From Nitrosopumilus sp. (GTDB lineage: Bacteria; Desulfobacterota; Binatia; UBA1149; SPBQ01), in contig CAXQPB010000198.1 of NCBI GenBank assembly GCA_964225545.1, forward strand, positions 39,452 to 103,451: 64,000 bases of DNA, given 5' to 3'. The notes below the pieces were generated by a model that ran no database searches, had not been told where the DNA came from, and worked only from the letters and a program-made list of their open reading frames with translations. The position numbers and the translations under genes are program-made. Of this stretch, positions 40,191 through 55,847 are shown piece by piece (the first letter of the stretch is position 1; the number at the start of each line of letters is the position of its first letter).

Positions 40191-40196
40191 GTCGAG

Positions 40197-40922: not shown

Positions 40923-41062
40923 GATTCAGCTGATCCAGATGATCCCGATTCGTTCGATGACCGCGCCGCCGGCCCGGCCCGATCATGCGTATCCGGCGCC
41001 CTGAGAACAAGTGGTTTCTGCGCGCCGCGCAGACGATACCGTATGGCCGCGACCGCGAGCTC

Positions 41063-41494
41063 ATGGTGATGGAGAGTTGTTCGAGGGTTTTCGTCTACGG
41101 CACGCTGCAGCAGGGCGAGGAGCTGTCACACCTGTGGCCGCACGCTCCGCTTGCTGTCGAACCGGCCGTCGTGACGGGCCGGCTGCACGATCTCGGGCCT
41201 TACCCGGCGCTCGTGGCCGGCGCTGACCTCGTGGCCGGAGAGCTGTGGAAACTCGGCCCGGAGCATATGGCGGCTACCCTCGCCGTGCTCGATGAAGTCG
41301 AGGATTACGGCCAGGAAGGGGAAGACGATCTGTACGTGCGCACGATCATCGAATGCCGCCTTGCCAGCGCGCGCGTGGAGCGCGCCTTTGCCTATCTTTT
41401 CGCCGATCCGTCCGCGCTGGTCTCGGCGCCGGTGATCGCGCCGGATGCGGATGGATTGTGTCGCTGGAAGCGCGGCGGCGAGCCTGAGCGCTAG
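41063..41494 (+). CDS. Gamma-glutamyl cyclotransferase-like (GGCT/AIG2 family)
   Basis: VFVYGTLQQGE motif near the N-terminus. Start placed at MVMESCS inside ORF 40985..41494. Confidence 0.6.
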   Translation: MVMESCSRVFVYGTLQQGEELSHLWPHAPLAVEPAVVTGRLHDLGPYPALVAGADLVAGELWKLGPEHMAATLAVLDEVEDYGQEGEDDLYVRTIIECRLASARVERAFAYLFADPSALVSAPVIAPDADGLCRWKRGGEPER

Positions 41495-41549
41495 CCGGTT
41501 GCAGACTGGCTGCCTTGCGGCCGGCGCGCTGGATGCCGCGTTCTGTCGT

Positions 41550-41729
41550 TCAGTGAAGGGTGCGAACCCGCCGGTTCTCGGTCTCGAGGATGACATCGCT
41601 GCGCTTGGATCGCCGGCTCTTCGGCTTCAGCGTCGACTCCATGACCCAGGTGCCTTCGATGCGCTTGCCCGTCACCACAACCTTTTTGCTGCTCTTCGAT
41701 CCGTTGTTCTTTTTCGAGAAGAAAGCCAT
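41550..41729 (-). CDS. Small lysine/arginine-rich protein of unknown function (59 aa)
   Basis: MAFFSKKNNGSKSSKKVVVTGKRIEG... GGAGGA RBS 6 nt upstream of the ATG. No recognisable domain. Confidence 0.4.
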   Translation of the reverse strand: MAFFSKKNNGSKSSKKVVVTGKRIEGTWVMESTLKPKSRRSKRSDVILETENRRVRTLH

Positions 41730-42100
41730 GCCCGTTCCTCCGTGCGTGATGGGAGCAGACAAAGCAGGTGCCATGCCGTGTGCCTGGCATGGATTAAGTG
41801 CTTGAAATCACTGGAACTTGCTGAAGCAGGCGGGTTCGATCGAGGTACATCGGCGAGCGCGTTCGTACATTGTCGCGCGTGCCGATGCCCTCACGCGCAG
41901 TTCATCTCTTCGGTCAATGACCGTACGAGGAAAAAGCGCGCGTACGTTCGAGATCTGGTTCTGTGAAGAGCCTTCGCGCTGCTCTCCCGTTGCGGTTGCC
42001 CGAGTGCTAGGCTCGCGTCGTCGCGGCGTTTCGCGCGCCCGCGCAGGCTGGTGCCTGCGGCCGGGCTTTTTCGGGACCGCATTCGCCGCCGGAGGTAACC

Positions 42101-42988
42101 ATGGCTACAGCAACGAACGCAGGGACACTGTCAGTCACCCGTCTTTCCGGCTCACTCGGGGCGGAGATCCGCGGCGTCAAACTGGTGGAGGCGACACCCG
42201 ATGACGTCGAAACCTTCCGCAAGCTGTTGCTCGAACACCTGGTGATCTTTTTTCCGGATCAGACCCTGACTCCGGACGAGCACATCGCGTTCGGACGTAT
42301 GTTCGGTGAGCTCGAGGCGCACCCCAACCTCATGTTCGCCGGTGAGCGGCCCGAGTTCTTCGAGCTGCACGCCGAGGGAGGGCAGGGGGCGATCGCCGAC
42401 GAGTGGCACAGCGATCTCACCTGTCAGGCCGAGCCCTCGGTCATGGCGATCCTGCACATGGTCAAGTGCCCGGAGGTCGGCGGCGATACGATGTGGGCCA
42501 ACATGTACAAGGCCTACGACGGGCTCTCACCGGCGATGAAGGAATTCTGCGAAGGGCTGTCCGCGCTGCACGATGCGGATCCCCACGGAGATGCCGATAA
42601 GACCGCGATTCATCCGGTCGTTCGCGTGCATCCGGAGACCGGCAGAAAATCGCTCTTCGTCAACGAGCACTTCACGCGCCGTATTGTCGAACTCAGCCAC
42701 GCCGAGAGCCGTGCTCTGCTCTCGTACCTGACCTCATGGGCATCCAGCCCGCAGTTCTCCGTCCGCTACCGCTGGACGCGCGGAACCGTCGCGATCTGGG
42801 ACAATCGTTGCACGCAGCACTGCGTTCTGAACGACTTCGAAGGGGAGCGAGTGATCCAGCGCGTCACGGTCATGGGCGACCGGCCGCAGGCGGCATCGCC
42901 GCCGCGCTGGGAGCCGCGGCTGCTGCCGCTCAGCGCGTCCAGTCGTCACGACCGCCAGCTCTTCGAGCATCTGCACGACGACCAGTAG
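42101..42988 (+). CDS. TauD/TfdA-family Fe(II)/2-oxoglutarate-dependent dioxygenase
   Basis: 295 aa. TauD-like signature: WHSD (HxD iron ligands), second His near VHPETG..., C-terminal R in WDNRCTQH. Confidence 0.75.
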   Translation: MATATNAGTLSVTRLSGSLGAEIRGVKLVEATPDDVETFRKLLLEHLVIFFPDQTLTPDEHIAFGRMFGELEAHPNLMFAGERPEFFELHAEGGQGAIADEWHSDLTCQAEPSVMAILHMVKCPEVGGDTMWANMYKAYDGLSPAMKEFCEGLSALHDADPHGDADKTAIHPVVRVHPETGRKSLFVNEHFTRRIVELSHAESRALLSYLTSWASSPQFSVRYRWTRGTVAIWDNRCTQHCVLNDFEGERVIQRVTVMGDRPQAASPPRWEPRLLPLSASSRHDRQLFEHLHDDQ

Positions 42989-43002
42989 CGGCCGTCCTCC
43001 GG

Positions 43003-44154
43003 CTACAGCCGCTCGATGATCGTCACATTGGCCTGACCGCCGCCCTCGCACATCGTCTGCAGCCCCCAGCGTCCGCCGGTCCGCTCCAGCTCGTTGAGCA
43101 GGGTCGCCATCAGGCGTGTGCCGGTCGCTCCGATCGGGTGACCGAGCGCGATCGCTCCGCCGTTCACGTTGACCTTCGAAAGGTCGGCGCCGGTCTCCTT
43201 CTGCCAGGCGAGCACAACCGGGGCGAAGGCCTCGTTGATCTCGACCAGATCGATCTGATCGAGAGTCATCCCTGTCTTCTCCAGTGCCCAGGCCGTCGCC
43301 GGAATCGGAGCGGTCAGCATATAGATCGGATCGTCGGCGCGAACGCTCATGTGGTGGATGCGCGCGCGTGGCTTCAAGCCGTGCTGTTTCACCGCGCCCT
43401 CTGACGCGATCAGCATGGCCGTCGCTCCGTCCGAAATCTGGCTGGCGACGGCTGCGGTGAGCCGGCCGCCTTCGGACAGCGGCTTGAGCTTCTGCATCCG
43501 CTCGATCGACGTATCGCGTCGCGGCCCTTCGTCGAAGTCGAGCTCGCCGTAGGGGAGAATTTCGTTCTTGAAGCGCCCCTCGTCGGTGGCGCGGATCGCG
43601 CGCTGGTGGCTTTCGAACGCGAACGCCTCCATCTCGTCACGGGTGATGTCCCACTTCTCGGCGATCATCTCCGCGCCGCGAAACTGCGAGACCTCCTGCG
43701 TGCCGAAGCGTTCGACCCAGCCTTTCGAACCGGAGAACGGGTCGGTGAAACCGAGAGGCTCGGCCAGCGTCATCGCCGACGAGATCGGGATCTGACTCAT
43801 GTTCTGCACGCCGCCGGCGACCACCAGATCGCTGGTGCCGCTCATCACGGCCTGCGATGCGAAGTGCACCGCCTGCTGCGAGGATCCGCACTGGCGGTCG
43901 ATGGTTACTCCGGGGACGTGCTGCGGCAGCCCGGCGGCCAGCCAGCAGGTGCGCGCGATGTCACCGGCCTGCGGGCCGATGGTGTCGCAGCAGCCGAAGA
44001 TCACGTCCTCGACCGCACCCGCGTCGACGCCGGTGCGTTCGACCAGGCCCTTGAGGACGTGTGCTCCGAGGTCAGCCGAGTGCTCACCGGCAAGTCCGCC
44101 GCCTCTGCGGCCGACCGGAGTGCGGACCGCGTCGATGATGTATGCCTCTGCCAT
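43003..44154 (-). CDS. Thiolase (acetyl-CoA C-acyltransferase)
   Basis: 383 aa. Thiolase N-terminus IIDAVRTPVGRRGG, QCGSSQQA active-site Cys region, C-terminal GGGQA motif. Confidence 0.85.
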   Translation of the reverse strand: MAEAYIIDAVRTPVGRRGGGLAGEHSADLGAHVLKGLVERTGVDAGAVEDVIFGCCDTIGPQAGDIARTCWLAAGLPQHVPGVTIDRQCGSSQQAVHFASQAVMSGTSDLVVAGGVQNMSQIPISSAMTLAEPLGFTDPFSGSKGWVERFGTQEVSQFRGAEMIAEKWDITRDEMEAFAFESHQRAIRATDEGRFKNEILPYGELDFDEGPRRDTSIERMQKLKPLSEGGRLTAAVASQISDGATAMLIASEGAVKQHGLKPRARIHHMSVRADDPIYMLTAPIPATAWALEKTGMTLDQIDLVEINEAFAPVVLAWQKETGADLSKVNVNGGAIALGHPIGATGTRLMATLLNELERTGGRWGLQTMCEGGGQANVTIIERL

Positions 44155-44205
44155 GTTATTGCTCTCCGTGGGTCTCTGTTCTGGTTGACTGCCTTGTGTC
44201 GGGAA

Positions 44206-45405
44206 TCAGCGTGTGACGACGACCGAGGATCCGTGTCCGAACAGCCCCTGGTTGACGCTGACGCCCGCGCGCGCTCCCTCGACCTGCCGGTCGCCGGCCC
44301 GCCCCTGGATCTGCCACGTGAGTTCACAGACCTGCGCGATCGCTTGCGCGGGGATCGCCTCTCCGAAGCAGGCGAGCCCGCCGCTGGGATTGACCGGGCA
44401 GCGGCCGCCGATCGTCGTCTCACCGTCGCGGAGCAGCTTCTCCGCATCGCCGGGTTCGCACAGCCCGATGTTCTCGTACCAGTCGAGCTCCAGTGCCGTG
44501 GACAGGTCGTAGACCTCGGCCAGGTTCATGTCCTCCGGACCCAGCCCGGACTGCTCGTAGGCGGCCCTGGTGATCGAGTCGCGGAACGGCGTATCGGGCA
44601 GACCCACCGCGGCAGCCGAATCGGTCGCGAAGTTCGGCATCTCGATGACATCGTTGGGATAGGTCGGCGTCACGGTCGAGACGGCGGCGATCTTCACGGG
44701 GTCGGTGGTGTGCTTGCGCGCGAACTCCATGCTCGAAAGCACGATCGCTGCGCCGCCATCACTGGTCGCGCAGATGTCGAGCAGACGCAGCGGGTCGGAC
44801 ACGACCGGCGACTTGCCGAAGTCCTCTTCGGTGACCTCTTTTCGATATCGGGCGTTCTCGTTTTTCAGACCGTGGCGAGCGTTCTTGATCTTCACGCGCG
44901 CGAAGTCTTCCGCGGTTGCCCCGTACATTTCCATGCGGCGGCGAGCGTACAGCCCGAAGTAGATCGGGTTGGTCGCACCGATGAGATGAAACCGCAGCCA
45001 GTCGGGGTCCTGCGTGCGTTTGCCGCCGGTCGGCGCAAAGAAGCCCTTCGGTGTCGTGTCGGCGCCGACGACGAGCGCGGTGTCGCACATGCCGGCGAGG
45101 ATCATCGCGCGCGCGGTGTTGATCGCCTGCGTGCCGCTGGCGCACGCGCCGTACGAGCTGGCGACCGGCGCGCCGGTCCAGCCGAGCGCCTGCGAGAACG
45201 TCGCGCCGGCGACATAGCCGGGGTAGCCGTTGCGGATCGTGTCGCCACCGGCGACGAAGCCGATGTCTTTCCACTCCAGGCCCGCGTCATCGAGGGCCTG
45301 GTTGGCTGCGTGAATGCCGTACTCGACGAAGTTGCGTCCCCACTTTCCCCAGGGGTGCATACCGACGCCGAGGACCGCGACCTGCTTGTCCGTACCGTTG
45401 CTCAA
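44206..45405 (-). CDS. SCP-x-type thiolase-fold lipid-transfer protein (Ltp2-like)
   Basis: 399 aa thiolase fold lacking the classical thiolase catalytic signature. Resembles nsLTP/SCP-x thiolases that partner with DUF35 proteins. Confidence 0.75.
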   Translation of the reverse strand: MSNGTDKQVAVLGVGMHPWGKWGRNFVEYGIHAANQALDDAGLEWKDIGFVAGGDTIRNGYPGYVAGATFSQALGWTGAPVASSYGACASGTQAINTARAMILAGMCDTALVVGADTTPKGFFAPTGGKRTQDPDWLRFHLIGATNPIYFGLYARRRMEMYGATAEDFARVKIKNARHGLKNENARYRKEVTEEDFGKSPVVSDPLRLLDICATSDGGAAIVLSSMEFARKHTTDPVKIAAVSTVTPTYPNDVIEMPNFATDSAAAVGLPDTPFRDSITRAAYEQSGLGPEDMNLAEVYDLSTALELDWYENIGLCEPGDAEKLLRDGETTIGGRCPVNPSGGLACFGEAIPAQAIAQVCELTWQIQGRAGDRQVEGARAGVSVNQGLFGHGSSVVVTR

Positions 45406-45418
45406 CAGATCTGTCTCC

Positions 45419-45856
45419 TCAGCCCGCGCTCGGGCGCCACTTCCAGACCAGATACTCGTTCTCGTCGTCCTCGTACAGAGCGTCGATCACCAGCTCCATC
45501 TTCATGCCCGCCGATAGATCAGCGATCGATACATCGGAGCTGACCTGGCCGAGGACAACCATCTTCTCGAGATCCAGCTCGACGGCCGCGACAATGTACG
45601 GTTCGAACGGGTCGGGCGCCACGTAGGGAGCCGGCGGCGGATAGCGGTTGTCGGTGAACGACCACAGCGTGCCGGTGCGGCTGAGCGGGATCTCTTCGAA
45701 GTCGTTGCCGCGACAGGCGGGGTTGCGGCAGAAATACGTCTCCCGCGGAAAGAAGTAACTGCCGCAGCTCTTGCAGCGGGTGCCGATGAGATGAGCGATC
45801 TCGCCGTCGGCGACGAACCAGCCGTCGATCGCAGGGACTTTTTTCTTCTGACTCAT
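45419..45856 (-). CDS. DUF35 OB-fold/zinc-ribbon protein (ChsH2 C-terminal-domain-like partner of SCP-x thiolase)
   Basis: 145 aa. Cys4 rubredoxin-like zinc ribbon (CKSCGSYFFPRETYFCRNPAC) followed by an OB-fold. Classic genomic pairing with the SCP-x thiolase 14 nt downstream. Confidence 0.8.
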   Translation of the reverse strand: MSQKKKVPAIDGWFVADGEIAHLIGTRCKSCGSYFFPRETYFCRNPACRGNDFEEIPLSRTGTLWSFTDNRYPPPAPYVAPDPFEPYIVAAVELDLEKMVVLGQVSSDVSIADLSAGMKMELVIDALYEDDENEYLVWKWRPSAG

Positions 45857-45875
45857 TTCTCTCGCTTCTTTCCGT

Positions 45876-46940
45876 TCACGCTTGTGTCGTGCCGACTGCC
45901 TCGAAACCGAACGAGGGGCCTCCGCGCTCGCGCAGAACGGCGTCCGCTACCCGGCGTCGATGATACAGCCGGCTGCCCCAGCTCGACTCGAGGGCCCACG
46001 CGCGCTTCATCCACAGATGCAGGTCGACCTCCCAGGTGTACCCGATCGCACCATGTACCTGGAGCGCGGTTTTCGCCGCTGCGCATGCGGCTTCATCGGC
46101 CATTGCCTTTGCCTGGGAGACATCGATCGTCCGATTCGGAGAGTCTGTCGCGATCGAATGCGCGGCCCGGTAGACCATCGGTCGGGCGAACTCGAGCTTC
46201 ACTGCCACGTTGGCCAGGTGATGCTTGATCGCCTGGAACGAACCGATCGGCTTCCCGAACTGATGACGATCTTTCGCATAGTCAACGGCGAGCTCGATCA
46301 GCCGGGCAGTGATGCCGAGCTGCTGGGCCGCGATTGCGAGGGCCGCGCGATCGGCGGCTCGTTGCATCATCGCCTGGGCCTCGTCTCCCGACGCCACGGT
46401 CGTCGCGTCTCCGGTAATCTCGAAGGTGTACAGCCGTCGCGACGGATCGCTGGTGGGCTGTCGCTCGGTTTTCAACGCCGCTCGTTCGACGGCGGCGATC
46501 TCGCCTGCGCGTTCGATCAGAACAAGATCCGCATCGCCGGCATCGGCGACTGCCGGATTGATGTGACCCGCCACCGTGACGACCGCTTCTCCGCTCGCGA
46601 TCGCAGGAAGCCAGCGACCCGCGAGCTCCTCGTTGCCGCACTCGGCGAGCAGCGGAGCCGCCACCGCGGCGGTCTCGACGACCGGCTCGGGGAGGGCGAC
46701 GCGCCCGGTCTCCTCGAGCGGAAGTAGGAGGTCGAGCTCGTTCATGCCGAGTCCGCCGTGCGATTCGGGCACCAGCACGCCGAGCAGGCCCGACGAGGCC
46801 AGCGCCGCCCAGCGCTCCGTCGAGCGGCCGCGCTCGTCGTCCCACAGCGCGCGGATCGACTCCGGCGTGCAGTGCTTCTCGAGCAGCGGCCGCAAGCTGT
46901 CGCGGAAAAGGTTCTGATCTTCGGTGAACGTGAACTGCAT
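45876..46940 (-). CDS. Acyl-CoA dehydrogenase family protein (short FadE-type, likely subunit of a heteromeric ACAD)
   Basis: Start MQFTFTEDQNLF, typical ACAD N-terminus. C-terminus ...LQVHGAIGYTWEVDLHLWMKRAWALE. 354 aa. An alternative GTG at 46970 would overlap the upstream gene. Confidence 0.7.
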   Translation of the reverse strand: MQFTFTEDQNLFRDSLRPLLEKHCTPESIRALWDDERGRSTERWAALASSGLLGVLVPESHGGLGMNELDLLLPLEETGRVALPEPVVETAAVAAPLLAECGNEELAGRWLPAIASGEAVVTVAGHINPAVADAGDADLVLIERAGEIAAVERAALKTERQPTSDPSRRLYTFEITGDATTVASGDEAQAMMQRAADRAALAIAAQQLGITARLIELAVDYAKDRHQFGKPIGSFQAIKHHLANVAVKLEFARPMVYRAAHSIATDSPNRTIDVSQAKAMADEAACAAAKTALQVHGAIGYTWEVDLHLWMKRAWALESSWGSRLYHRRRVADAVLRERGGPSFGFEAVGTTQA

Positions 46941-46944
46941 CGAC

Positions 46945-48108
46945 TCAGGCCCGTGGGAGTCCCAGCACACGCTCGGCGATCACGTTGCGCTGGATCTCGT
47001 TGGTGCCGGCGTAGATGGGACCGGCCAGGGAGAACAGAAAGCCATCGAGCCAGCCGCCGACGTCGCCGGCCGCGCTCGCGTGCGGCAGAAGCTCGGCCCG
47101 TGATTCGAGGATGGCGAGCGCGGTCTCGTGCATGCTGAGGTCGAGTTCGGACCAGAAGATCTTGTTCAGGCTGGCCTCGGCACCGATCGACCCACCCTGC
47201 ATCAGCCGTGAGGCGGTCTGATAGGTGTTCAGGCAATACGCCTCCGCGCCCATCCACGCGCGCGCGACCGCATCGCGCAGGGAGGGGTCGGCCTCATCGG
47301 CATGACGCCGGTACAACTCGACCAGCCGCGCCGCCGTCGCCTGAAAACGCGCCGGGCTGCGCAGCATCAGCCCGCGCTCGAAGCCCGCCGTCGCCATCGC
47401 CACCGACCAGCCTTTGTCACGCTCGCCGAGCTGGTTCTCGATCGGAACGCGGACCTCGTCGAAGAAGATCTCCGCGAAGCCGGTCTCGCCGTCGAGCTGG
47501 GAGATCGGGCGAACGGTGATGCCGTCGAGGTCGAGGGGGACGAGAATGAAGGTCAACCCGCGATGACGCTCGGAGTCCGGGTCGGTACGGAACATGCCGA
47601 ACAGCCAGTCGGCGAACGCGGCACGTGAAGCCCAGGTCTTCTGGCCATTGAGAACGAAGTGGTCGCCGTCGATACGGGCGCTGGCGCGGATGGCTGCCAT
47701 ATCGCTGCCGGCGTTGGGTTCGGACCAGCCCTGCGCCCAGATCTCCTCGCCCGATGCCATGCGCGGGAGGAACCGGGCTTTCTGCTCGGCGGTGCCGTAT
47801 TCCATCAAAGTCGGTCCGAGCAGGAAGATTCCGTTCTGATTCACGCGGCCCGGTGAGCCGGCTCGCCAGTACTCCTCCTCGAAGATCAGCCACTCGATCA
47901 GATTGGCACCGCGACCGCCGTACTCCTCCGGCCAGTTGACCATTCCCCAGCGCCCCTCGTTCAGTTTCGCTTCCCATACGCGGTGGGCAGCGAAGCCTTC
48001 GGCGGTGTCCATCGAAGGCAGAGGGTCGCTCGGTACGTTCTTTGCGAGCCATTCGCGTGCTTCCGAGCGCAGCGCCCGGTGCTCCGGTGTGTAACTGAGA
48101 TCGATCAC
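46945..48108 (-). CDS. Acyl-CoA dehydrogenase family protein; YEGT-type motif reads YAGT
   Basis: 387 aa. GTG start overlapping the stop of the upstream hydratase (GTGA). C-terminal IYAGTNEIQRNVIAERVLG. Confidence 0.75.
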   Translation of the reverse strand: MIDLSYTPEHRALRSEAREWLAKNVPSDPLPSMDTAEGFAAHRVWEAKLNEGRWGMVNWPEEYGGRGANLIEWLIFEEEYWRAGSPGRVNQNGIFLLGPTLMEYGTAEQKARFLPRMASGEEIWAQGWSEPNAGSDMAAIRASARIDGDHFVLNGQKTWASRAAFADWLFGMFRTDPDSERHRGLTFILVPLDLDGITVRPISQLDGETGFAEIFFDEVRVPIENQLGERDKGWSVAMATAGFERGLMLRSPARFQATAARLVELYRRHADEADPSLRDAVARAWMGAEAYCLNTYQTASRLMQGGSIGAEASLNKIFWSELDLSMHETALAILESRAELLPHASAAGDVGGWLDGFLFSLAGPIYAGTNEIQRNVIAERVLGLPRA

Positions 48109-48853
48109 TTCTTGCCCGAAAAGTCCGCGTCGCGTTTCTCGACGAATGCGTCCCGGGCCTCCTGGGAGTCCGGCGACGTGTACAGCTCGAGGGTAAAGCC
48201 CTGCTCGAAACGGTAACTGCGCTTGACGTCCAGCAGCTCGATCCCGTCGAGCGACTCTTTGGCGAGCCGCAGGGCCTTGCCGCTCTTCGATGCGATCTTT
48301 GCGGCCAGCTCGCGCGCTTCGGCAGCGAGGCGGTCGGCCGGCACCACCGATTCGATGGAGCCGTGACGATAGGCCTCGGCGGCGCTGATCGGTTCGCCGG
48401 TGTAGAGCATGCGACGGACCTTCTGCATCGGGAACATTCGATAGAGGTGAGAGGCGGCCCCGAGCGCGCCACGGTCGATCTCCGGCAATCCGAAGCTGGC
48501 GTCCTCGGAGGCGAGAATGATGTCGGCCGAGCCCGCCATGCCGATACCGCCACCGAGACAGAAGCCGTGAACGGCAACGATGACCGGGACCTTGCAGTCG
48601 TGGATGGCCGCGAAGGTGTCGTAGCAGCCTTTGTTGACGCGGGTGATCCGGCTGCCGTCGGCCTGCAGCTCCTTGATGTCGACGCCCGCGCAGAACCCGC
48701 GGCCCTCGGCTCGGATCAGCAGGCAGTTGACGTTCTCATCGCGGCCGGTCTCGTCGATGGTGCGCGCGAGGTCGAACCACCCGGCGCTGTCAAAAGCGTT
48801 TACCGGCGGGTGATCGAGAACGAGTTCGGCGATGCGGTCTGCGGTCGTGACAG
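48105..48853 (-). CDS. Enoyl-CoA hydratase (crotonase; EchA20-like by size and context)
   Basis: Crotonase signature (LIRAEGRGFCAGVDIKEL ... VAVHGFCLGGGIGMAGSADI). Start inferred as TTG at 48853 with AGAGGAA RBS. The upstream part of ORF 48105..49472 overlaps the hydrolase gene in another frame and is discounted. Confidence 0.65.
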
Positions 48854-48904
48854 TGAATGGCAAGGCGTTTCCTCTCGGGAATCGTCGGCGGCCGACGCGT
48901 TGAA

Positions 48905-48970
48905 TAGAACGTGTTTCACTATCAAGAGGGCGGCGCTTGGTAAAGGAGCCGCCACGCTCAGCGTGCGGCC
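48905..48970 (-). promoter_or_regulatory. Copy B of a ~65-nt repeated intergenic element containing a KstR-type palindrome TAGAACGTGTTTCA (48905..48918), upstream of the enoyl-CoA hydratase gene
   Basis: Fits the TnnAACnnGTTnnA consensus of TetR-family KstR operators. Also shares CTTGGTAAAG and GCGTGCGGC blocks with copy A. On the coding strand it gives TTTACC-N17-GATAGT, a possible promoter. Confidence 0.4.
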
Positions 48971-50424
48971 TCGCGTATGCGGTCCTCGACGTAGGCGAAG
49001 AACGGGTTGTGGCGAAGGCGCATCGCGAGATCGAGAGGGATGCTCGCCACGCCGCGCTCGCCGCGCAGGTCGAGTGAGCCGATCGGCGGGAACGGCCGCA
49101 CGGCGCTGCGGTCGCGGTGGGCGCCGTAGACCGGATCGTCGGGCGGGAAGGGGACGGCGACATGGGAGAGCGAATAGACCGCCTGCGGCCACGCCAGGTC
49201 GAGTGGTTGTTCCGTCCACTCGGTGCTCCCGGCTGCGCGTCTTTGCGCGACCACTTCGGCGCTGTCCGGTGCCGTGTTCGTGACCAGAGTGAAGGCGTAA
49301 TCGGCCTCGGTGCTCGACACGATGCCTTCGAGATAGGCGAGGTTGCCGGCGCGGATGAAATCGATGGCTTCGGTCCTGCGGTTGATGTCGAACAGGACCA
49401 CCTCCGAGCCGTTGCGACCGAGGTTCTCCACCAGCCGGACCACTGAGTCGGGCGGCACGGTGGCATCGACAACGGAGCCGAAAGAGAGCAGCGGCGGGAA
49501 TCGAGTTCGCTGCTCGACGCTCAGCCGTTCGAGGCGCGTACGAATCTTCCCGGTCAGCCGGTAGATCTGCCGGCCGGCGTTGACCGGAAACGAGTTGTAC
49601 TTGTACGGATCGTATTCGGGCAGGATGTCGATCCATGCCAGCTTCTCCAGGCCCGGTATGGCCGCCATCCACAGCTGCACGCGCGCCAGCGCCGCGAGCG
49701 GCGATACCGTCAGGGCCGGCGAGAGCAGGATGAGCCGGTCGGGGATGCGTCCTCGCCCGTGGTCGATCACGCGCAGGCTGTGATCGACGGCGAGCGCGGC
49801 GCCGTTGGAGTAACCGGCGATGAAAAATCGGGCGGAATCGCCTGCGGCGTTCTCGCTGACCTCGACGACGTGTTCGGCGGCCAGCCGGCCGGTCTCGCGC
49901 CCGTCCCGGACGTCGATCTCGGTCAGCGCGCCCGGCATCGTCCCGTGGCCGGGGACGCGCAGACCGACGACGTAGTAGCCCTGGTCGACGAGGATCTGCC
50001 CGACGGATCGCAGCGAATACGGCGAATCGCTCAGCCCGTGGAGCAGCAGCGCGCCGCCGCGGATCTCCTCCGGTCGCAGGATGTACGTGCGGTTCCAGTT
50101 GCGGGCGCGACCGCGCGGGCTTGATCGGCTGCCCGGGCTGAAGCGATCAAAGACTGCCGCGAGACCGCTGCGTGCATTCTCCTGCTCGAGAGCGGCCAGC
50201 TCCTCGAACAGCCCGTTTTCGTAATCGAGGTAGCTTTCGAAGTCGGCGTCGGAGTCGTCGGCGTCGAACTCGAAGGGCAGCGCGTCGCTGTGCCAGAACT
50301 TGACGTCCGGCATGCCACGGGCCTGGAGGATGTGGGTCGTCAGGAGCGTCACGCTGCCGCCGAAGACCGTGGCGAGGATCAGCCGTCCGACGGATCTCAG
50401 TGCACGGCTTGCCGTCTCGCGCAT
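48958..50424 (-). CDS. Membrane-anchored alpha/beta hydrolase
   Basis: 488 aa. N-terminal TM. GYSNGA nucleophile elbow (GxSxG). Confidence 0.6.
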   Translation of the reverse strand: MRETASRALRSVGRLILATVFGGSVTLLTTHILQARGMPDVKFWHSDALPFEFDADDSDADFESYLDYENGLFEELAALEQENARSGLAAVFDRFSPGSRSSPRGRARNWNRTYILRPEEIRGGALLLHGLSDSPYSLRSVGQILVDQGYYVVGLRVPGHGTMPGALTEIDVRDGRETGRLAAEHVVEVSENAAGDSARFFIAGYSNGAALAVDHSLRVIDHGRGRIPDRLILLSPALTVSPLAALARVQLWMAAIPGLEKLAWIDILPEYDPYKYNSFPVNAGRQIYRLTGKIRTRLERLSVEQRTRFPPLLSFGSVVDATVPPDSVVRLVENLGRNGSEVVLFDINRRTEAIDFIRAGNLAYLEGIVSSTEADYAFTLVTNTAPDSAEVVAQRRAAGSTEWTEQPLDLAWPQAVYSLSHVAVPFPPDDPVYGAHRDRSAVRPFPPIGSLDLRGERGVASIPLDLAMRLRHNPFFAYVEDRIREAAR

Positions 50425-50433
50425 CGCCGTACG

Positions 50434-51495
50434 TCAGGCGGTCGCGGCGACCGCCGAGAGTCGCTGCTCGGCTTCGTCGGCGATTCGCGCGACGAGCTCC
50501 GCGCAGCTGGGCAGGTCATCGATCACGCCGGTGACCTGGCCGCTCGGCAGCACGCCTTCGGATGGATGCCCCTCGACCATCGCGCGCTGGATGAAGATCG
50601 GAGAGTTCGCCGCCATCAGCGTCTGCGTGCGCGTCAGCCTCTCGTTGCGTTGCATCGAGATTGCCGCGCCGAGCAGCTCGGAGATCGTAGCGCCGCTCAT
50701 ACGGCGGTATTCCAGCCCGCTCATCAGCGCGCGCCACAGCCGTGTCAGCGGGTTCCCCGTCTCGAGCTTGCGCAGGAACTCGTTGACAACCACGCGGTGG
50801 GGGAGTCCGTCGACTTCCTCGGTCACCCGCGTGTCGAGCACCGAGGCCTGCAGGTAGCGCTCGAGGGTCGGGCGGGGGACCGGGCTGTCCGAGGTCAGCA
50901 GGAAGCGAGTGCCCATGGCGATACCCGCGGCGCCCCAGGTGATCGCAGCCGCCAACCCGCGTCCATCGTGGAAACCGCCCGCTGCGGCCACCGGCACGTC
51001 GACCGCATCGAGGACCTGCGGCAAAAGCAACGAAGTCGGGACCGAGCCCGTGTGTCCTCCGCCTTCGCCGCCCTGACAGACGATCATGTCCGCGCCGAGC
51101 TCGACGGCTTTGACCGCATGCTTCACCTGGCCGACGGTCGGCACGCACAGCACGCCCGCGGCCTTGAACTTCTCGACGTAGCTCTTCTTCGGCGAGCGGC
51201 TGTAGCTGGCTGCCTTCACGCCGTAACGGACGACGAGGTCGGCGATGTCGTCGGCGCCGGGCTGCTCCATCAGGAAGTTGACGCCGAAGGGGCGGTCGGT
51301 CAGTTCCTTGACGCGAACGATCGCGCGCTCGGCCTCCGCGGGACGCAGGACCGCACAGGCGAGAAAGCCCATCGCTCCCGCGTTGGCGGTGGCGGCGACC
51401 AGCTCCGGTGTCGCGACCCATCCCATCGCCGTCTGGATGATCGGGTAGCGGACTCCGAAACGCTCACTGAGTTCGGTCTGCAGGGCAGGGTGCAT
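50434..51495 (-). CDS. Nitronate monooxygenase (NMO) / enoyl-reductase family FMN TIM-barrel protein (IpdC-like by context)
   Basis: 353 aa. YPIIQTAMGWVATPELVAA N-terminus typical of the NMO family. Gly-rich FMN-binding block GGEGGGHTG. Confidence 0.75.
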   Translation of the reverse strand: MHPALQTELSERFGVRYPIIQTAMGWVATPELVAATANAGAMGFLACAVLRPAEAERAIVRVKELTDRPFGVNFLMEQPGADDIADLVVRYGVKAASYSRSPKKSYVEKFKAAGVLCVPTVGQVKHAVKAVELGADMIVCQGGEGGGHTGSVPTSLLLPQVLDAVDVPVAAAGGFHDGRGLAAAITWGAAGIAMGTRFLLTSDSPVPRPTLERYLQASVLDTRVTEEVDGLPHRVVVNEFLRKLETGNPLTRLWRALMSGLEYRRMSGATISELLGAAISMQRNERLTRTQTLMAANSPIFIQRAMVEGHPSEGVLPSGQVTGVIDDLPSCAELVARIADEAEQRLSAVAATA

Positions 51496-51513
51496 ACGCG
51501 CGTCCGCTCCTGT

Positions 51514-52287
51514 TCAGCGCGCGGCGAACACCGAAGCGCGCTGGTCGTGCGGGTCGAGTACGCCGCGGATGATCTCCAGCTGTTCAGCCGTCGGCGCCGG
51601 CGTCTCGCCGCAGTCTTCGGCGACCGCGAGCTCGAAGCCGGTGTTCTCGCGGACCTCCTCGAGCGTCGTCCCCGGGTGGACCGAGACAACGCGCATCGTG
51701 TGGTCCGGTCCGCCGAAATCGAGCACCGCCAGGTTCGATATGACCCGGCGCAGCTCCATCAGGTCGCTGCGCACGCCCTTGGGCCATCGCGCGGCCTCGT
51801 AGCCGACGCCTGAGGACATATCGACTTTGCCGACGAACGTCCGCGCCGTGTGCGAAGGCACGAAGAAGCTGCACGGATGGTTGATCGTATTGCCGGGGAT
51901 GCCGCGTACGCCGAGCAACTGGACCTTGGGTTTCGCGTGGTCGCCGATCACGCTGATGTTCGAACTGCCGAAGCGGTCAATCTGCGTCGGCATCGTCATC
52001 GCATGACGTTTGCCGCTCCAGAGCAGGTCGAACACTCTGCGGAACGGCAGCCACCCCTCGATCTTGAGCGCGTCGTCTCCGCGCGGGCCGACCGGGATCG
52101 GCTCTGAGACCAGCCGACACTCACCGTCGTTGAGCAGCAGGTCGGGGCTGAAGCTCAGCCGCGCCAGGCCTGCACCCAGGCGTGGGATCAGCCCCATGCC
52201 CGACGCGAGGATCTCACCGTCGCCGCGCCACGCCTCGGCGCACGCGGCGATACAGAGTTCAGCGTGTGTGTAGTGACCGTGATCCAT
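51514..52287 (-). CDS. CoA-transferase family I subunit B (IpdB-like)
   Basis: 257 aa. Sequence pattern of the 3-oxoacid/glutaconate CoA-transferase beta subunit. Start overlaps the subunit A stop by 1 nt (TGATG). Confidence 0.7.
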   Translation of the reverse strand: MDHGHYTHAELCIAACAEAWRGDGEILASGMGLIPRLGAGLARLSFSPDLLLNDGECRLVSEPIPVGPRGDDALKIEGWLPFRRVFDLLWSGKRHAMTMPTQIDRFGSSNISVIGDHAKPKVQLLGVRGIPGNTINHPCSFFVPSHTARTFVGKVDMSSGVGYEAARWPKGVRSDLMELRRVISNLAVLDFGGPDHTMRVVSVHPGTTLEEVRENTGFELAVAEDCGETPAPTAEQLEIIRGVLDPHDQRASVFAAR

Positions 52288-53153
52288 CAGAACACCGGTG
52301 CCGGGAGTGCGGAGATGCGGTCACCGCCGCCGACCGCGTCGAGATACGCGGTCTCGTCGACGTCCACATACTCTTTCCAGTACGCGGCACGCGCCTCGTC
52401 GTCCTTCGCCGCTGCCGAGTACGTCTTCAGGTGATCGAGGTCGATGCCGTATGCAGGAACACAGGCGGTCGGATGCGCGCCGAACGGAGTCTCGACCACG
52501 CCGTCGGTCAGCGTGCGGTTGAGGACGAGCGACTGCAGCGGGCCGAGCCGTGTGAGCTCTTCGGTTTCGACGATGCGCTCGCAGCTTACGAAACGCTTTT
52601 TCGCGGCCCCGCAGAACAGATCGTCGAAGTACGGGTCGGGGCCGAGGATCTGACCGTTACCGCGCTCGTCGGCATGATCGACGTGGACGAGCGCCGCGTC
52701 GAGCTCGAGCGCCGGCATGGCGAGCAACACCTCGCCGTCCTCATACGGAGACGTGACGGTGCGGATCTCCGGGTTGAGCTGCTGCACGTCGCAGCCGAGC
52801 CCGGCCCGGGTCGGCAGGAACGGCAGCCGGATCATCGCTGCGCGCAGACCCCACTGCAGCATTCCCTCGTCGATCTCCATGACCTCGAGCCGGCCGGCCT
52901 GCCGCGCCGCCCTGAAGTGGGCATCGAGCGGGATCAGGTCGAGGGAGACGAAGCCGAACACCAGCTTGCGCACTTTGCCGGCCGCGCACAGCAGGCCGAC
53001 ATCGGGGCCACCGTACGAGACCAGTGTGAGGTCCTTCAGGGACGATCGCGCGATCTCCCGAATCAGGGCCATCGGCTTGCGGCGTGCGCCCCAACCGCCG
53101 ATGCCGAGAGTCATGCCGTCGGCGAGTTGGCCGACGACGTCGGCTGCTGTCAT
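52287..53153 (-). CDS. CoA-transferase family I subunit A (IpdA-like)
   Basis: Start MTAADVVGQLADGMTLGIGGWG (CoA-transferase alpha N-terminus). 288 aa. The longer ORF to 53495 is a spurious extension. Confidence 0.7.
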   Translation of the reverse strand: MTAADVVGQLADGMTLGIGGWGARRKPMALIREIARSSLKDLTLVSYGGPDVGLLCAAGKVRKLVFGFVSLDLIPLDAHFRAARQAGRLEVMEIDEGMLQWGLRAAMIRLPFLPTRAGLGCDVQQLNPEIRTVTSPYEDGEVLLAMPALELDAALVHVDHADERGNGQILGPDPYFDDLFCGAAKKRFVSCERIVETEELTRLGPLQSLVLNRTLTDGVVETPFGAHPTACVPAYGIDLDHLKTYSAAAKDDEARAAYWKEYVDVDETAYLDAVGGGDRISALPAPVF

Positions 53154-53233
53154 GCGTTTGTTCACCCGATGGAACCCTTCCGGATCGACCGACACTCCGG
53201 CTGTACATCGGAGCGGGAGCGCGATCGCAGCAG

Positions 53234-53300
53234 TGGAACGCGTTCTATTAGCAAGGCGCGGGGCTTTGGTAAAGCCGGTGCCGCGCGGCGTGCGGCTGTC
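53234..53300 (-). promoter_or_regulatory. Copy A of the repeated element with KstR-type palindrome TGGAACGCGTTCTA (53234..53247), upstream of the IpdA-like gene
   Basis: About 75% identical to copy B over about 65 nt. GAACGCGTTC is a perfect 10-bp palindrome. On the coding strand it gives TTTACC-N17-TAATAG. Confidence 0.4.
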
Positions 53301-53493
53301 GGCAGCGAGTAGACCGGCGGAAACCGTCTTCGGATCCACCGCAGGCGGCGATCGTGAGGCCGTGTCGTCATTTCGCGTTTGCGCGACTCCTGCTAAGACC
53401 CGTGGCGGTGTCTCATCAAGTTCTGCTCTCGAACTTCGAGAAAGCAGCCGACGCCGTTGCAGCGCGCGACGGCGACCGGACGGGAAGCACGGC

Positions 53494-53700
53494 ATGACAG
53501 GCTCACGGGTTTTGCGTCGATCTGAACACGGAATGATCGCAGGCGTCTGCGCGGGGATCGCCGAGTACCTCGGCTGGCCGCCATCTCGTGTGCGCCTGGT
53601 TTACGTCGTGGTTTCGCTGGCAAGCGTGGCCTTCCCCGGCATGCTCGTGTACTGCGTGCTCTGGTTTCTGATGCCCGGGCCGTACGACCAGCGCGGCTGA
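53494..53700 (+). CDS. PspC-domain small membrane protein
   Basis: 68 aa. MIAGVCAGIAEYLGWPPSRVRLVYVVVSL matches the PspC-domain consensus, followed by a TM helix. Confidence 0.65.
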   Translation: MTGSRVLRRSEHGMIAGVCAGIAEYLGWPPSRVRLVYVVVSLASVAFPGMLVYCVLWFLMPGPYDQRG

Positions 53701-53740
53701 AGTCGTCGGTCTTGCCCGACCCGACCGTGAGGAGCATGAA

Positions 53741-54490
53741 ATGAAACGATTCGCCGACAGAGCCGCGCTTGTCACCGGAGCCGCCTCGGGTATCGGCCGC
53801 GCCACGGCCGAGCGACTCTGCGAGGAGGGGGCGCGGGTACTGTGCACCGATGTCGACGCGGCCGGCCTCGAAGAAACCGTTGCTGCAATCACCTCGGCCG
53901 GCGGCGCAGCGGTCGCGCGTGTGAGCGACGTCTCCGACCCGGAGCACTGCACGCATGCCGTCGCCGATTGTCGTGCGCGGTTCGGACGGCTTGACGTTCT
54001 GTGCAACGTCGCCGGCATCCTCCACTGGGACAACACGCACGAGCTCGAGCTCGACGTCTGGGAGAGGGTTCTGCGGGTGAATCTCACCGGTACGTTCCTG
54101 ATGTGCAGGGAGGCGCTGCCGGCGCTGCTCGATTCAAAGGGCTGTATCGTCAACGTCTCGTCGACGTCGGCGCTGGCCGGCATTCCGTGGACGGCGGCCT
54201 ACGCGTCGTCGAAGGGTGGTGTCCTGGCTCTGACGCGCACGCTCGCGATCGAGTACGGAAAGCGTGGTGTGCGCGCCAACGCGGTGTGTCCGGGCTCGAT
54301 CGACACGCCGATGACCGGTCAGGCAAGCTTCCCCGAGGACGCGGATCTGAAGCTGCTGCGTCGGGCGATGGCGCTGGACCGGCCGCGCGGTCCGGAGACG
54401 GTCGCCTCGGTCATCGCGATGCTGGCGTCGGAGGACGGCGCGCACATCAACGGCGAGTCGATCCGCGTAGACGGCGCGACGCTCTCCTGA
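53741..54490 (+). CDS. Short-chain dehydrogenase/reductase (SDR)
   Basis: 249 aa. TGAASGIGRA, NVAG, YASSK motifs. Confidence 0.8.
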   Translation: MKRFADRAALVTGAASGIGRATAERLCEEGARVLCTDVDAAGLEETVAAITSAGGAAVARVSDVSDPEHCTHAVADCRARFGRLDVLCNVAGILHWDNTHELELDVWERVLRVNLTGTFLMCREALPALLDSKGCIVNVSSTSALAGIPWTAAYASSKGGVLALTRTLAIEYGKRGVRANAVCPGSIDTPMTGQASFPEDADLKLLRRAMALDRPRGPETVASVIAMLASEDGAHINGESIRVDGATLS

Positions 54491-54548
54491 TCGCGCGCCC
54501 GCGCTGCTGCACTCGCACGCCGCGGCTCGGGCGAGCTCGAACCGCGAA

Positions 54549-55847
54549 TCAGTCCAGGCGCTCGATCACTGTCGAGATTCCCATCCCGGCGCCGATACAC
54601 TGCGTCGCCAGACCGTAGCGCAGGTTCGATCGCCTGAGTTCTTTCGCGACCGTCACCACCAGACGTGCGCCCGTTGCTCCGAGCGGATGACCGATGGCCA
54701 GTGAGCCGCCGTTCACGTTCACGCGATCGAGCGGAATTCCGAGCTCGCGCACCGAGGGGATCACCTGAGCGGCGAACGCCTCGTTGAACTCGACGCGGTC
54801 GATCTGCTCGGCGGTGATGCCGGCCTGTGCCATCGCTTTCTTCGACGAGACCACCGGGCCCAGCCCCATGACCTGCGGTTTGACGCCGCCCACGGCCATC
54901 CCGACGATCCGTGCGAGCGGCTCGACGCCGCACGCCGCTGCCCGCTCTTCGCTCATCAGCAGCGCGGCGGAGACGCCGTCGTTGGTAGGGCAGGAGTTGC
55001 CGGCTGTGATCACGACCTCGCGGTCGGCGAAGCTCTTCAGCCCGCGAAGCGTCGGCAGGCCCGCCAGCGACTCGGCTGTGGTGCCCGGGCGCGTGCACTC
55101 ATCGTAGTCGAAGACGACCTTCTCGCCGCGCTCGTCTTCGAGCCAGTTTCTCTCGTCATCAAACACCGGCAGCTCGACCTCGAGCGGGATGATCTCGTCT
55201 TTGTAGATACCGGCCTCGTGGGCTGCGTGCGTGCGCCGGTGGCTCTCGGCCGAGTAGGCGTCGAGTTCCTCGCGGCTGAGGTCGTAGCACTCCGCGACGT
55301 TCTGCGCGGTCTGTGGCATCGGCTGGATCCACGGTGACTTGCGGATGTATTCGGGAAACTCGACGCTGAAGTAGTCGCTGTGGTCCGGCGCGTGCGCGAT
55401 CTGCGCGTCGGTCATCTCCGCGATGCGATCGGTGAGCTGCGTGATGCGATTGCGGGCGCCGCCTCCGCCGATGGTTCGGCCCATGCGCTCGATTCCCATC
55501 GCGGCACCGCACTCGATCTGACCGACCATGATGCTGGTTGCCACGCGGTGAAGCGTCTCCATGCTCGAGCCGCACTGACGGTTGCTGTGGAACGAACACG
55601 ACTCCATCGGCAGCCCTGCGAGTCGTTGCACGGTGCCGATGTAGCTGAACTCGCTGGCGGCGCCGGCGACGTTGCCGGTGCCGACGTCCTCGATCATCGC
55701 GTCGGCGATCTTCGGCTGGCGATCGAGCAGTGCTCGCAGCACTTTGGCGCCCGCCTCATCGAGCCGGGTGGCGACGAGACTTCCGCGAGCGCCGCGGGCA
55801 AAGGCCGAGCGCGCACCATCAACGAGGACTGCATTCTTCAGCTGCAT
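54549..55847 (-). CDS. Thiolase (3-ketoacyl-CoA thiolase, FadA-like)
   Basis: Start MQLKNAVLVDG with AGGAGA RBS. 432 aa. Thiolase C-terminal GLATQCIGAGMGIS. Confidence 0.8.
   Translation of the reverse strand: MQLKNAVLVDGARSAFARGARGSLVATRLDEAGAKVLRALLDRQPKIADAMIEDVGTGNVAGAASEFSYIGTVQRLAGLPMESCSFHSNRQCGSSMETLHRVATSIMVGQIECGAAMGIERMGRTIGGGGARNRITQLTDRIAEMTDAQIAHAPDHSDYFSVEFPEYIRKSPWIQPMPQTAQNVAECYDLSREELDAYSAESHRRTHAAHEAGIYKDEIIPLEVELPVFDDERNWLEDERGEKVVFDYDECTRPGTTAESLAGLPTLRGLKSFADREVVITAGNSCPTNDGVSAALLMSEERAAACGVEPLARIVGMAVGGVKPQVMGLGPVVSSKKAMAQAGITAEQIDRVEFNEAFAAQVIPSVRELGIPLDRVNVNGGSLAIGHPLGATGARLVVTVAKELRRSNLRYGLATQCIGAGMGISTVIERLD

Follow-up and report, generated by a model that had tools for sequence, protein, structure and literature searches.

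A probable HIP-type pathway for the last two steroid rings in an uncultured Binatia lineage

Can a lineage outside the Actinobacteria and Proteobacteria open the last two rings of steroids? The question is raised by a ten-gene operon in a 64,000-nt stretch of contig CAXQPB010000198.1 (GenBank assembly GCA_964225545.1, positions 39,452 to 103,451; this whole stretch is termed the window), which a preliminary description made from the sequence had likened to the steroid C/D-ring genes that act on HIP. In genomic and metagenomic surveys, Actinobacteria and Proteobacteria are the only groups reported to degrade steroids aerobically (PMC4810484; PMC5790920), and we found no report linking Binatota, Binatia, or Myxococcota to steroid breakdown; the only related report concerns sterol biosynthesis genes in sponge-associated Binatia (PMC9531527). 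Judging from the sequences, we consider it probable that an uncultured Binatia-type diderm carries, in the operon and its linked genes, the CoA-dependent HIP pathway by which the last two steroid rings are opened and broken down.

Gene models and enzyme identities

The operon comprises ten open reading frames, all on the minus strand between positions 43003 and 53153, and Pfam searches of the translations agreed with the sizes and domains given in the preliminary description. The same ten gene models came from gene calling based on GC content at third codon positions (GC3) and from the independent calls made for 23 metagenome contigs with an identical IpdB; GC content across the whole window is 59 to 68%. 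The genes had been described as separated by minimal gaps or overlapping. This holds for the ipdA and ipdB genes, which share 1 nt (TGATG), for the crotonase gene and the adjoining acyl-CoA dehydrogenase (ACAD) gene, which share 4 nt (GTGA), and for most of the remaining gaps, of 4 to 19 nt, but not for the 94-nt gap that separates the stop codon of the hydrolase gene from the crotonase start, which contains an operator-like palindrome, nor for a 51-nt gap between the SCP2-like gene and the last thiolase gene. Because of these two wider gaps, the block may be two transcription units.

We then analyzed the sequences of the ten proteins. The first two genes encode an IpdA-type alpha subunit (288 aa; positions 52287 to 53153; PF01144) and an IpdB-type beta subunit (257 aa; positions 51514 to 52287; no Pfam match) of the ring-C hydrolase, or COCHEA-CoA hydrolase, family. 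In the PDB, the alpha subunit matched 6CO6_A of Rhodococcus jostii RHA1 (E 7e-93) and 6CON_A of Mycobacterium tuberculosis (E 3e-82), and the beta subunit matched 6CO6_B (E 2e-73) and 6CON_B (E 5e-68). Glutaconate CoA-transferase was the next best match of the pair (GctA, E 5e-28; GctB, E 2e-15), about 200 bits behind, with 101 and 59 bits to GctA and GctB versus 314 and 250 bits to IpdA and IpdB of RHA1. The pair also scored far under the cut-offs of the 3-oxoacid and acetate CoA-transferase models (57 versus a cut-off of 128 for pcaI/scoA; atoD was likewise under its cut-off). Since the sole difference between the A chains of 6CO6 and 6COJ is EMDEGM versus EMDAGM, the Glu mutated to Ala in 6COJ_A is the catalytic Glu, and it is conserved in the window protein (EIDEGM, with Glu96 aligned). 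The preliminary description had asked whether the pair would group with IpdAB or with ordinary glutaconate and 3-oxoadipate transferases; PDB matches, model scores, and a tree of IpdA plus IpdB all placed it with IpdAB. By sequence, the pair is thus of the IpdAB family and not a glutaconate or 3-oxoacid transferase, and it is predicted to hydrolyze COCHEA-CoA.

For gene-by-gene comparison, the window proteins were mapped by tblastn onto 80 loci from a scan of one genome per species. The third gene (positions 50434 to 51495) encodes a 353-aa protein of the nitronate monooxygenase (NMO) family (PF03060, 255 bits), a putative FMN-dependent acyl-CoA reductase of the IpdC/ScdK type. It scored 221 on the FabK model, against a cut-off of 453, and was 45 to 51% identical to the NMO proteins encoded beside ipdB in Novosphingobium and in about 60 loci of Actinobacteria, which argues against the generic enoyl-ACP reductase that had been considered beforehand. 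The IpdC-type assignment is based on this synteny and identity, and no curated IpdC model matched. In one NCBI metagenome-assembled genome (MAG), GCA_964230245.1 (L003, positions 4878 to 5938), the NMO gene is split into two fragments of 199 and 173 aa, probably by a frameshift error there; the window and the other assemblies carry it unbroken (353 aa).

The crotonase (252 aa, with a TTG start; positions 48105 to 48863; ECH_1) passed the NCBIfam model NF005925 (370.7 bits versus a cut-off of 260), which is also matched by the mycobacterial gene at the echA20 position (447 bits) and the Novosphingobium gene at the ScdY position (320 bits), and it was 47 to 58% identical to the reference genes at these positions in Actinobacteria and Novosphingobium. 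It is assigned to the EchA20/ScdY type, the ring-D hydrolase family. The last gene of the operon (positions 43003 to 44154) encodes a 3-ketoacyl-CoA thiolase of the FadA6 type (383 aa), which passed NF005865 (705.5 bits versus a cut-off of 591) and was 64 to 74% identical to genes at the fadA6 position; the same model is matched by the FadA6-position genes of Mycobacterium kyorinense and Novosphingobium.

Two ACAD genes lie between them. The product of the first (387 aa; positions 46945 to 48108) was 51 to 61% identical to that of the actinobacterial FadE31-position gene and 65% identical to its Novosphingobium counterpart, with ChsE4 (4X28_A, E 2e-54) as best PDB match. That of the second (354 aa; positions 45876 to 46940) was 35 to 43% identical to the products of FadE32-position genes (35 to 41% for the actinobacterial ones), contains only the N- and C-terminal Pfam domains, with no detectable middle domain, and has Tcur3481 and ChsE5 among its PDB matches. 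The closest solved relatives of the pair are the steroid alpha2beta2 heterotetramers ChsE4-ChsE5 and Tcur3481-3483, which fits a FadE31-FadE32-type heteromer with the first protein as the alpha subunit and the second as the beta subunit. By sequence and position, we regard the pair as orthologous to FadE31/FadE32 of the HIP pathway (ScdM1M2 type, MOODA-CoA dehydrogenase). The preliminary description had noted a resemblance of the ACAD pair, the DUF35 protein, and the adjoining thiolase-like protein to the igr side-chain module; this did not stand, the ACADs being FadE31/32-like. The igr-type module (ChsE1E2-ChsH1H2-Ltp2) was rejected because the operon has no MaoC gene and the DUF35 protein is stand-alone, and also because the thiolase-like protein has a YDLS motif and a Glu at the GHP position and finds Ltp2 (6OK1) only as its seventh-best PDB match.

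Relationship to known HIP clusters and host lineage

In the mycobacterial, Gordonia, Nocardia, Rhodococcus, and Amycolatopsis loci, the matches reproduced the layout of the KstR2 regulon (Crowe et al. 2017, PMC5380842), and identities to KstR2-regulon genes ranged from 35 to 74% across the approximately 60 actinobacterial loci. With the regulon of M. tuberculosis and R. jostii, the window shares orthologues of IpdA, IpdB, IpdC, EchA20, FadA6, FadE31, FadE32, FadD3, and Rv3548c, as well as the catalytic Glu of IpdA. It departs from the regulon, in which mycobacterial echA20 precedes ipdA, in gene order, in lacking both the KstR2 repressor and its operator as well as a clear IpdE1 or IpdF, in its additional hydrolase and DUF35/SCP2-like genes, and in its host, a diderm from another phylum. 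The match to the mycobacterial KstR2 module that had been put forward therefore stands gene by gene, whereas the gene order is that of the proteobacterial scd operon (scd nomenclature follows a Comamonas testosteroni TA441 preprint).

Searches of plasmids by tblastn found IpdB proteins 53 to 57% identical to that of the window in Novosphingobium, Sphingobium, Vibrio alfacsensis, Burkholderia, and Caballeronia. On plasmid pNL2 of N. aromaticivorans and on the Vibrio plasmid, the order is VOC dioxygenase, CoA-transferase A, CoA-transferase B, a 300-aa hydratase, NMO, crotonase, ACAD, ACAD, thiolase, and a short-chain dehydrogenase/reductase (SDR), followed on pNL2 by ACAD, ACAD, SDR, MaoC, ketosteroid isomerase, thiolase, and FadD3. 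The seven operon genes shared with these scd-type operons, which adjoin TesB-like VOC and ketosteroid isomerase genes, are 43 to 66% identical and stand in the same order; in its layout the operon thus follows the proteobacterial scdL1L2-K-Y operon, with which it is collinear, and not the mycobacterial arrangement. Its likeness to the scd operons of C. testosteroni TA441 and pNL2 covers the succession CoA-transferase A, B, NMO, crotonase, ACAD, ACAD, thiolase and, in the Binatia relatives, an Rv3548c-type SDR and then an ACAD after the thiolase. In contrast to the scd operons, the window has no ScdN-type 300-aa hydratase between the B subunit and the NMO and no adjacent TesB-type dioxygenase; it carries a DUF35 and SCP2-like pair before the thiolase, an alpha/beta hydrolase after the NMO (in a sub-clade), a KstR-type operator, and a 6.5-kb insert (positions 36452 to 42988) between the thiolase and the SDR and ACAD genes.

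The composition is also that of the HIP cluster of Sterolibacterium denitrificans (SEDNCHOL_10317-10325), which encodes IpdA, IpdB, a BbsA-like DUF35 protein, an SCP2-type propanoyl-CoA C-acyltransferase, IpdC, a hydratase, two ACADs, and a thiolase (PMC6678751). Compared by this published gene list, the two clusters share even the DUF35 and SCP2-type pair, which lies between ipdB and ipdC in S. denitrificans but after the ACAD pair in the window. Altogether, the steroid C/D-ring module IpdA-IpdB-IpdC-EchA20 recognized in the preliminary description is upheld by the PDB and NCBIfam matches, by synteny, and by a FadD3-family ligase in the flank.

We then looked into the host. A protein identical to the window IpdB was found only in metagenome assemblies and in the NCBI MAG GCA_964230245.1. 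The nearest loci, with IpdB 65 to 79% identical to that of the window, come from MAGs that bear the labels Candidatus Binatia, UBP10_UBA1149, Polyangiaceae UTPRO1, "Deltaproteobacteria," or "Myxococcales"; UBP10, UTPRO1, and UBA1149 are names of Binatota lineages in GTDB, and NCBI taxonomy places Binatia within Candidatus Binatota. IpdB was 65 to 85% identical to its Binatia homologues, compared with 53 to 57% for Proteobacteria and 45 to 58% for Actinobacteria. In a neighbor-joining tree of concatenated IpdA and IpdB, the Binatia-type MAGs formed one clade, in which the window stood beside locus L088; this clade adjoined three proteobacterial sequences, apart from the Actinobacteria. The DUF1329/LolA-like and MetA-type outer-membrane proteins of the window fit a diderm host and, together with the tree, bear out the Gram-negative, non-actinobacterial host that had been suspected. 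In 17 Binatia/UBP10-type loci the operon is retained as the block IpdA-IpdB-(IpdC)-EchA20-FadE31-FadE32-DUF35-SCP2-like-FadA6-Rv3548c-type SDR-ACAD, the NMO being missing at the operon position in some UTPRO1-type loci.

In some UTPRO1-type MAGs (L016, positions 2258 to 3724; also L010 and L023), a homologue of 3-ketosteroid-delta4(5alpha)-dehydrogenase (E 3e-139 to R. jostii 4AT0) is encoded just upstream of ipdA. The lineage therefore has at least one homologue of a ring-A steroid enzyme encoded beside the operon, but this does not apply to the organism studied here. The same upstream region also contains genes for a luciferase-like monooxygenase (LLM), a Zn-dependent alcohol dehydrogenase, an alpha/beta hydrolase, and an arylesterase/SGL lactonase. 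HsaD was rejected as the identity of this alpha/beta hydrolase, whose best PDB match was a "possible hydrolase" (6WYM), with HsaD only at E 1e-9.

Lineage-specific genes and putative operators

Between the ACAD pair and the FadA6-type thiolase lie genes for a stand-alone DUF35 protein with a zinc ribbon and an OB fold (145 aa; positions 45419 to 45856; PF12172 and PF01796; weak match to BbsA) and for an SCP2-thiolase-like protein (399 aa; positions 44206 to 45405; Thiolase_C_1). The latter passed NF004715 (711 bits versus a cut-off of 424), and its PDB scores were 168 bits to zebrafish SCP2-thiolase, 160 to BbsB, and 111 to Ltp2. Alignment to 6HSJ showed that the nucleophilic Cys is retained (GACASG), that YDLS stands in place of HDCF, the motif with the acid/base Cys, and that the His of GHP is replaced by Glu (GEA). 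Substitutions of the YDLS/GEA type occur in 9 of 10 Binatia orthologues, the tenth (L016) having a scrambled Cys region. In a library of 1.8 billion proteins, representatives with at least 40% identity share the pattern C / (Y,Q,A,P)-D-x-x / G-E, whereas more remote representatives are canonical, with C / HDCF or HDAF / GHP. We rejected a canonical SCP2-type thiolase (SCPx, BbsB), the Cys being present with both HDCF and GHP replaced.

The steroid aldolases Ltp2 (YDHF and Tyr) and Sal (YDCY and Gln) have a Tyr at the first motif position (PMC12329534). The window pair resembles Ltp2-ChsH2(DUF35) and Sal-Shy(DUF35) in combining a thiolase-fold protein with a DUF35 partner and in placing Tyr first in the HDCF-equivalent motif. 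It differs from them in that YDLS has neither His nor Cys at position 3, that its residue at the GHP position is Glu where they have Tyr or Gln, and that the nucleophilic Cys is kept; furthermore, its DUF35 protein is separate and not fused to a MaoC hydratase, and the SCP2-like protein is overall nearer to SCP2 thiolase and BbsB than to Ltp2. Fitting neither the thiolase nor the Ltp2/Sal pattern, it is therefore filed as neither a thiolase nor an Ltp2. Neither the KstR2 block of Actinobacteria nor the operons of Novosphingobium and Vibrio contain an equivalent of this pair. Among the cluster-member names of SCP2-like relatives we saw only "acetyl-CoA acetyltransferase," and no mycobacterial counterpart of NF004715/PRK06059 was found. 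We propose that the pair may carry out a late C-C cleavage of a methyl-branched beta-oxo or beta-hydroxy intermediate, possibly by a non-thiolase (Tyr/Glu) mechanism. In three loci (L019, L020, and L022), the stretch from the ACAD pair to the thiolase contains a second SCP2-like and DUF35 pair whose gene order is reversed; it is only 31 to 32% identical and has the motifs YDAF and SEA, so that this operon slot has been taken up by two different non-canonical thiolase-fold types.

The gene after the NMO (positions 48958 to 50424; PF12146, weak) encodes a 488-aa Hydrolase_4-type alpha/beta serine hydrolase with an N-terminal hydrophobic transmembrane helix and a G-Y-S-N-G elbow. The slot is empty in L008 to L023 and is filled in L088, from a MAG named Candidatus Binatia bacterium, by a 62%-identical homologue, and we therefore consider the gene a sub-clade-conserved insertion. 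More distant homologues (about 50% identity) adjoin patatin, TetR, and LLM genes, which points to a lipid esterase, and the membrane-anchored protein may be an accessory esterase or lipase.

Evaluation of the intergenic regions revealed two palindromes resembling KstR-type operators (motif TnnAACnnGTTnnA, as defined by Kendall et al. 2007, PMC1995591). One, TGGAACGCGTTCTA (positions 53234 to 53247), lies about 80 bp upstream of the ipdA start, right after a TTGCTA hexamer resembling a -35 element; the other, TAGAACGTGTTTCA (positions 48905 to 48918), lies ahead of the crotonase gene, within the 94-nt gap, and is preceded by TTGATA, so that a TTG(C/A)TA hexamer stands directly before each palindrome. 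The motif has exactly two matches in the 64 kb, versus 0.21 expected, both in the two promoter gaps of the cluster, which suggests two promoter-operator units. The same palindrome is found 55 to 120 bp upstream of ipdA in nine related Binatia loci. We propose that a KstR-like TetR repressor would bind both putative TnnAACnnGTTnnA sites and repress both units. On the basis of these motifs, regulation looks KstR-like rather than KstR2-like. KstR-like repressor systems have so far been tied to Actinobacteria. A scan of positions 42800 to 53800 for sigma-70 promoter and terminator consensus sequences gave no promoters and terminators at chance level, and was uninformative in a 66% GC genome. Upstream of ipdA in L012 and L014, a CAAAC-N5-GTTTG palindrome replaces the KstR-type one, a hint that another repressor controls the operon there.

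Proposed pathway, alternatives, and the wider window

Several genes outside the operon belong to HIP-linked families. A FadD3-family acyl-CoA ligase, of the HIP-CoA synthetase family, is encoded on the plus strand at positions 57912 to 59522; it passed NF005801 (739.6 versus a cut-off of 657) and was 42 to 54% identical to the products of fadD3-position genes. On the minus strand, an SDR of the Rv3548c type (positions 35383 to 36450, true start probably near 36280) passed NF005861 (481 versus a cut-off of 373), a model also matched by the Rv3548c-position genes of M. kyorinense and Novosphingobium; it was 54 to 67% identical to Rv3548c-position genes, and its counterpart directly follows the thiolase in L008, L010, L011, L016, L020, and L022. 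Next to it, an ACAD resembling IpdE2/ScdC (positions 34215 to 35549, minus strand, true start probably near 35366) remained below the cut-off of NF050027 (235 versus 450) and was 39% identical to the product of the first gene of the Novosphingobium ScdC-position pair. A MaoC-type hydratase (positions 30311 to 30838, minus strand) was 54% identical to the MaoC protein of the Novosphingobium pNL2 steroid cluster, and a 66%-identical MaoC gene lies downstream of the operon in L012. On the other side, a 432-aa thiolase is encoded at positions 54549 to 55847 (minus strand), directly upstream of ipdA as a conserved neighbor in the Binatia relatives. The plus-strand SDR at positions 53741 to 54490 (PF00106/PF13561) is a weak IpdF/ScdG candidate, and the acyl-CoA ligase at positions 55955 to 57484 (plus strand) is FadD4-like, with model scores below cut-offs. 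The FadA-like thiolase, ligases, and SDR noted in the preliminary description are thus present; they had been placed just downstream of the operon, but they lie at positions 53741 to 59522, upstream of ipdA in a divergent flank.

The enzymes were identified by homology, and the chemistry of the pathway that we propose is taken from characterized orthologues (PMC5380842). By analogy, the FadD3-family ligase would thioesterify HIP or a close analogue, and the propionate side chain would be lost by one round of beta-oxidation, for which the ACAD at 34215 to 35549, the MaoC hydratase, the Rv3548c-type SDR, and the 432-aa thiolase are candidates. An SDR and the IpdC-type flavoenzyme would then lead to the enone HIEC-CoA, the EchA20-type crotonase would open ring D hydrolytically to give COCHEA-CoA, and IpdAB would open ring C by retro-Claisen hydrolysis via the conserved Glu of the alpha subunit. 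The FadA6-type thiolase would free acetyl-CoA and yield MOODA-CoA, the predicted substrate type of the ACAD pair.

Several observations weigh against this reading. Neither kshA/kshB, kstD, nor hsaA-D/tes genes, nor genes for a Rieske oxygenase, an extradiol dioxygenase, HsaD, or steroid uptake or transport, were found in the 64-kb window by Pfam searches of confidently called genes between 17 and 64 kb and by tblastn of the relatives' flank genes; with kshA, kstD, and hsa absent from the window, the physiological substrate, a steroid or another hydrindane-type lipid, is therefore inferred. The window has a single IpdE2-like ACAD and no IpdE1 partner, the IpdF candidate SDR is only 34 to 38% identical to IpdF-position SDRs, the ScdN-type hydratase of the proteobacterial operons is missing from the operon, and the SCP2-like enzyme lacks two of three thiolase catalytic residues. 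As to regulation, the KstR2 operator AnCAAGnnCTTGnT has no exact match in the window, and its one-mismatch matches fall outside the promoter gaps; tblastn with M. kyorinense KstR2 as query found no homologue in the window or the Binatia loci, and neither a TetR gene near the operon nor a gene for a KstR-like TetR repressor anywhere in the window was seen. Finally, steroid use is not proven by ScdL1/ScdY homologues alone, as a recent comparative study cautions.

These gaps leave some room, in our view not much, for an operon of the same enzymology acting on a non-steroid alicyclic lipid, with hopanoid, other triterpenoid, diterpenoid, or carotenoid-derived ring fragments reaching the pathway as hydrindanone or methyl-cyclohexenone carboxyl-CoA in Binatia that are not steroid degraders. 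The absence of ring-A/B steroid genes from the window would agree with such a substrate, as would the flanks rich in general lipid functions (WS/DGAT, esterases, LLMs, fatty-acid hydroxylase, TauD) and the combination of lineage-specific additions (altered-site DUF35/SCP2-like pair, alpha/beta hydrolase) with a missing ScdN; moreover, Metapseudomonas resinovorans has been reported to have HIP-type clusters away from other steroid genes. We nevertheless consider a non-steroid substrate unlikely, since four HIP-linked curated models were passed (NF005925, NF005865, NF005861, and NF005801), the seven shared genes keep their order and identity to bona fide steroid clusters, related Binatia loci have the ketosteroid dehydrogenase homologue beside ipdA, and the operator is of the KstR type. 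We also know of no non-steroid substrate for any IpdAB/EchA20/IpdC trio.

Far less probable still is that the genes serve ordinary beta-oxidation of fatty acids or aromatics, the CoA-transferase being a generic one for 3-oxoacids or glutaconate and accompanied by an enoyl reductase; this reading can be set aside with considerable confidence. All the domains are generic, and homologues are annotated as "glutaconate CoA-transferase subunit B" or "ketoacid CoA transferase"; yet the preference of the CoA-transferase pair for IpdAB over GctAB, its scores under the pcaI/scoA and atoD cut-offs, the NMO score far under that of FabK, the HIP-specific curated families of the crotonase, thiolase, SDR, and ligase, and the synteny with steroid clusters across three phyla all speak against it. 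The genome context on which the preliminary description had made its case depend, namely the FadD3-family ligase and HIP models in the flanks, is likewise not that of simple fatty-acid or aromatic beta-oxidation.

The HIP pathway is of a kind already known, and its chemistry stays unchanged by these findings; the lineage-specific elements are the non-canonical DUF35-partnered thiolase-fold enzyme, the membrane esterase, the KstR-type operators, and, encoded next to the FadD3-family ligase, an F420-dependent LLM oxidoreductase of the Rv3520c subfamily (positions 59524 to 60543, plus strand; TIGR03559, 454.7 versus a cut-off of 335). Rv3520c is located in the cholesterol gene cluster of M. tuberculosis. 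More tentatively, and with clearly less confidence than in the pathway itself, we suggest that the Binatia (Binatota, with no cultured member) may be unrecognized degraders of steroid or related polycyclic rings, in which a novel Cys/Tyr/Glu DUF35-partnered thiolase-fold enzyme would replace the ScdN-type step in late C-C cleavage, with a membrane esterase in one sub-clade and control by a KstR-like repressor. If so, an abundant uncultured phylum of soil, sediment, and sponges would join the mineralizers of sterols, bile acids, and hormones, and the near-complete HIP operon would be a marker set for finding such organisms. The DUF35-partnered thiolase-fold enzyme, found with IpdAB here and in denitrifying sterol degraders, becomes a candidate for the last steps of ring degradation, and the predicted sites place a KstR-type operator outside the Actinobacteria.

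Other features of the window were also recorded. The insert of about 6.5 kb (positions 36452 to 42988), which parts the FadA6-type thiolase gene from the Rv3548c-type SDR and ACAD genes that are adjacent to it in related Binatia loci, is unrelated and contains Ser/Thr kinase, GlnA-like, GST-like, fatty-acid hydroxylase, GGACT, and TauD/TfdA dioxygenase genes. A gene for a small PspC-domain membrane protein (positions 53503 to 53700) is divergent upstream of ipdA and conserved in L088. Positions 1 to 17070 are the exact reverse complement of positions 17071 to 34140 (100% identity, no spacer, center at 17070/17071), and all genes in the first 17070 nt are mirror copies; this 17-kb perfect palindrome is most likely an assembly foldback artifact, such as a missed hairpin adapter at the contig end. 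Genes for lipids or hydrophobic substrates lie within positions 17095 to 29416 (mirrored at 4725 to 17046) and encode a WS/DGAT wax-ester synthase (20573 to 22075), a BD-FAE/Abhydrolase_3 esterase (23253 to 24587), a MetA-type outer-membrane channel (18422 to 19432), a DUF1329/LolA-like lipoprotein (28028 to 29416), and a second crotonase (27112 to 27963). A second gene of the LLM family is found at positions 19407 to 20768. At the palindrome center, a 219-aa open reading frame (positions 17095 to 17754, mirrored at 16387 to 17046) contains a Cys_rich_FGFR repeat (PF00839, E 5e-13), a domain that is mostly eukaryotic.

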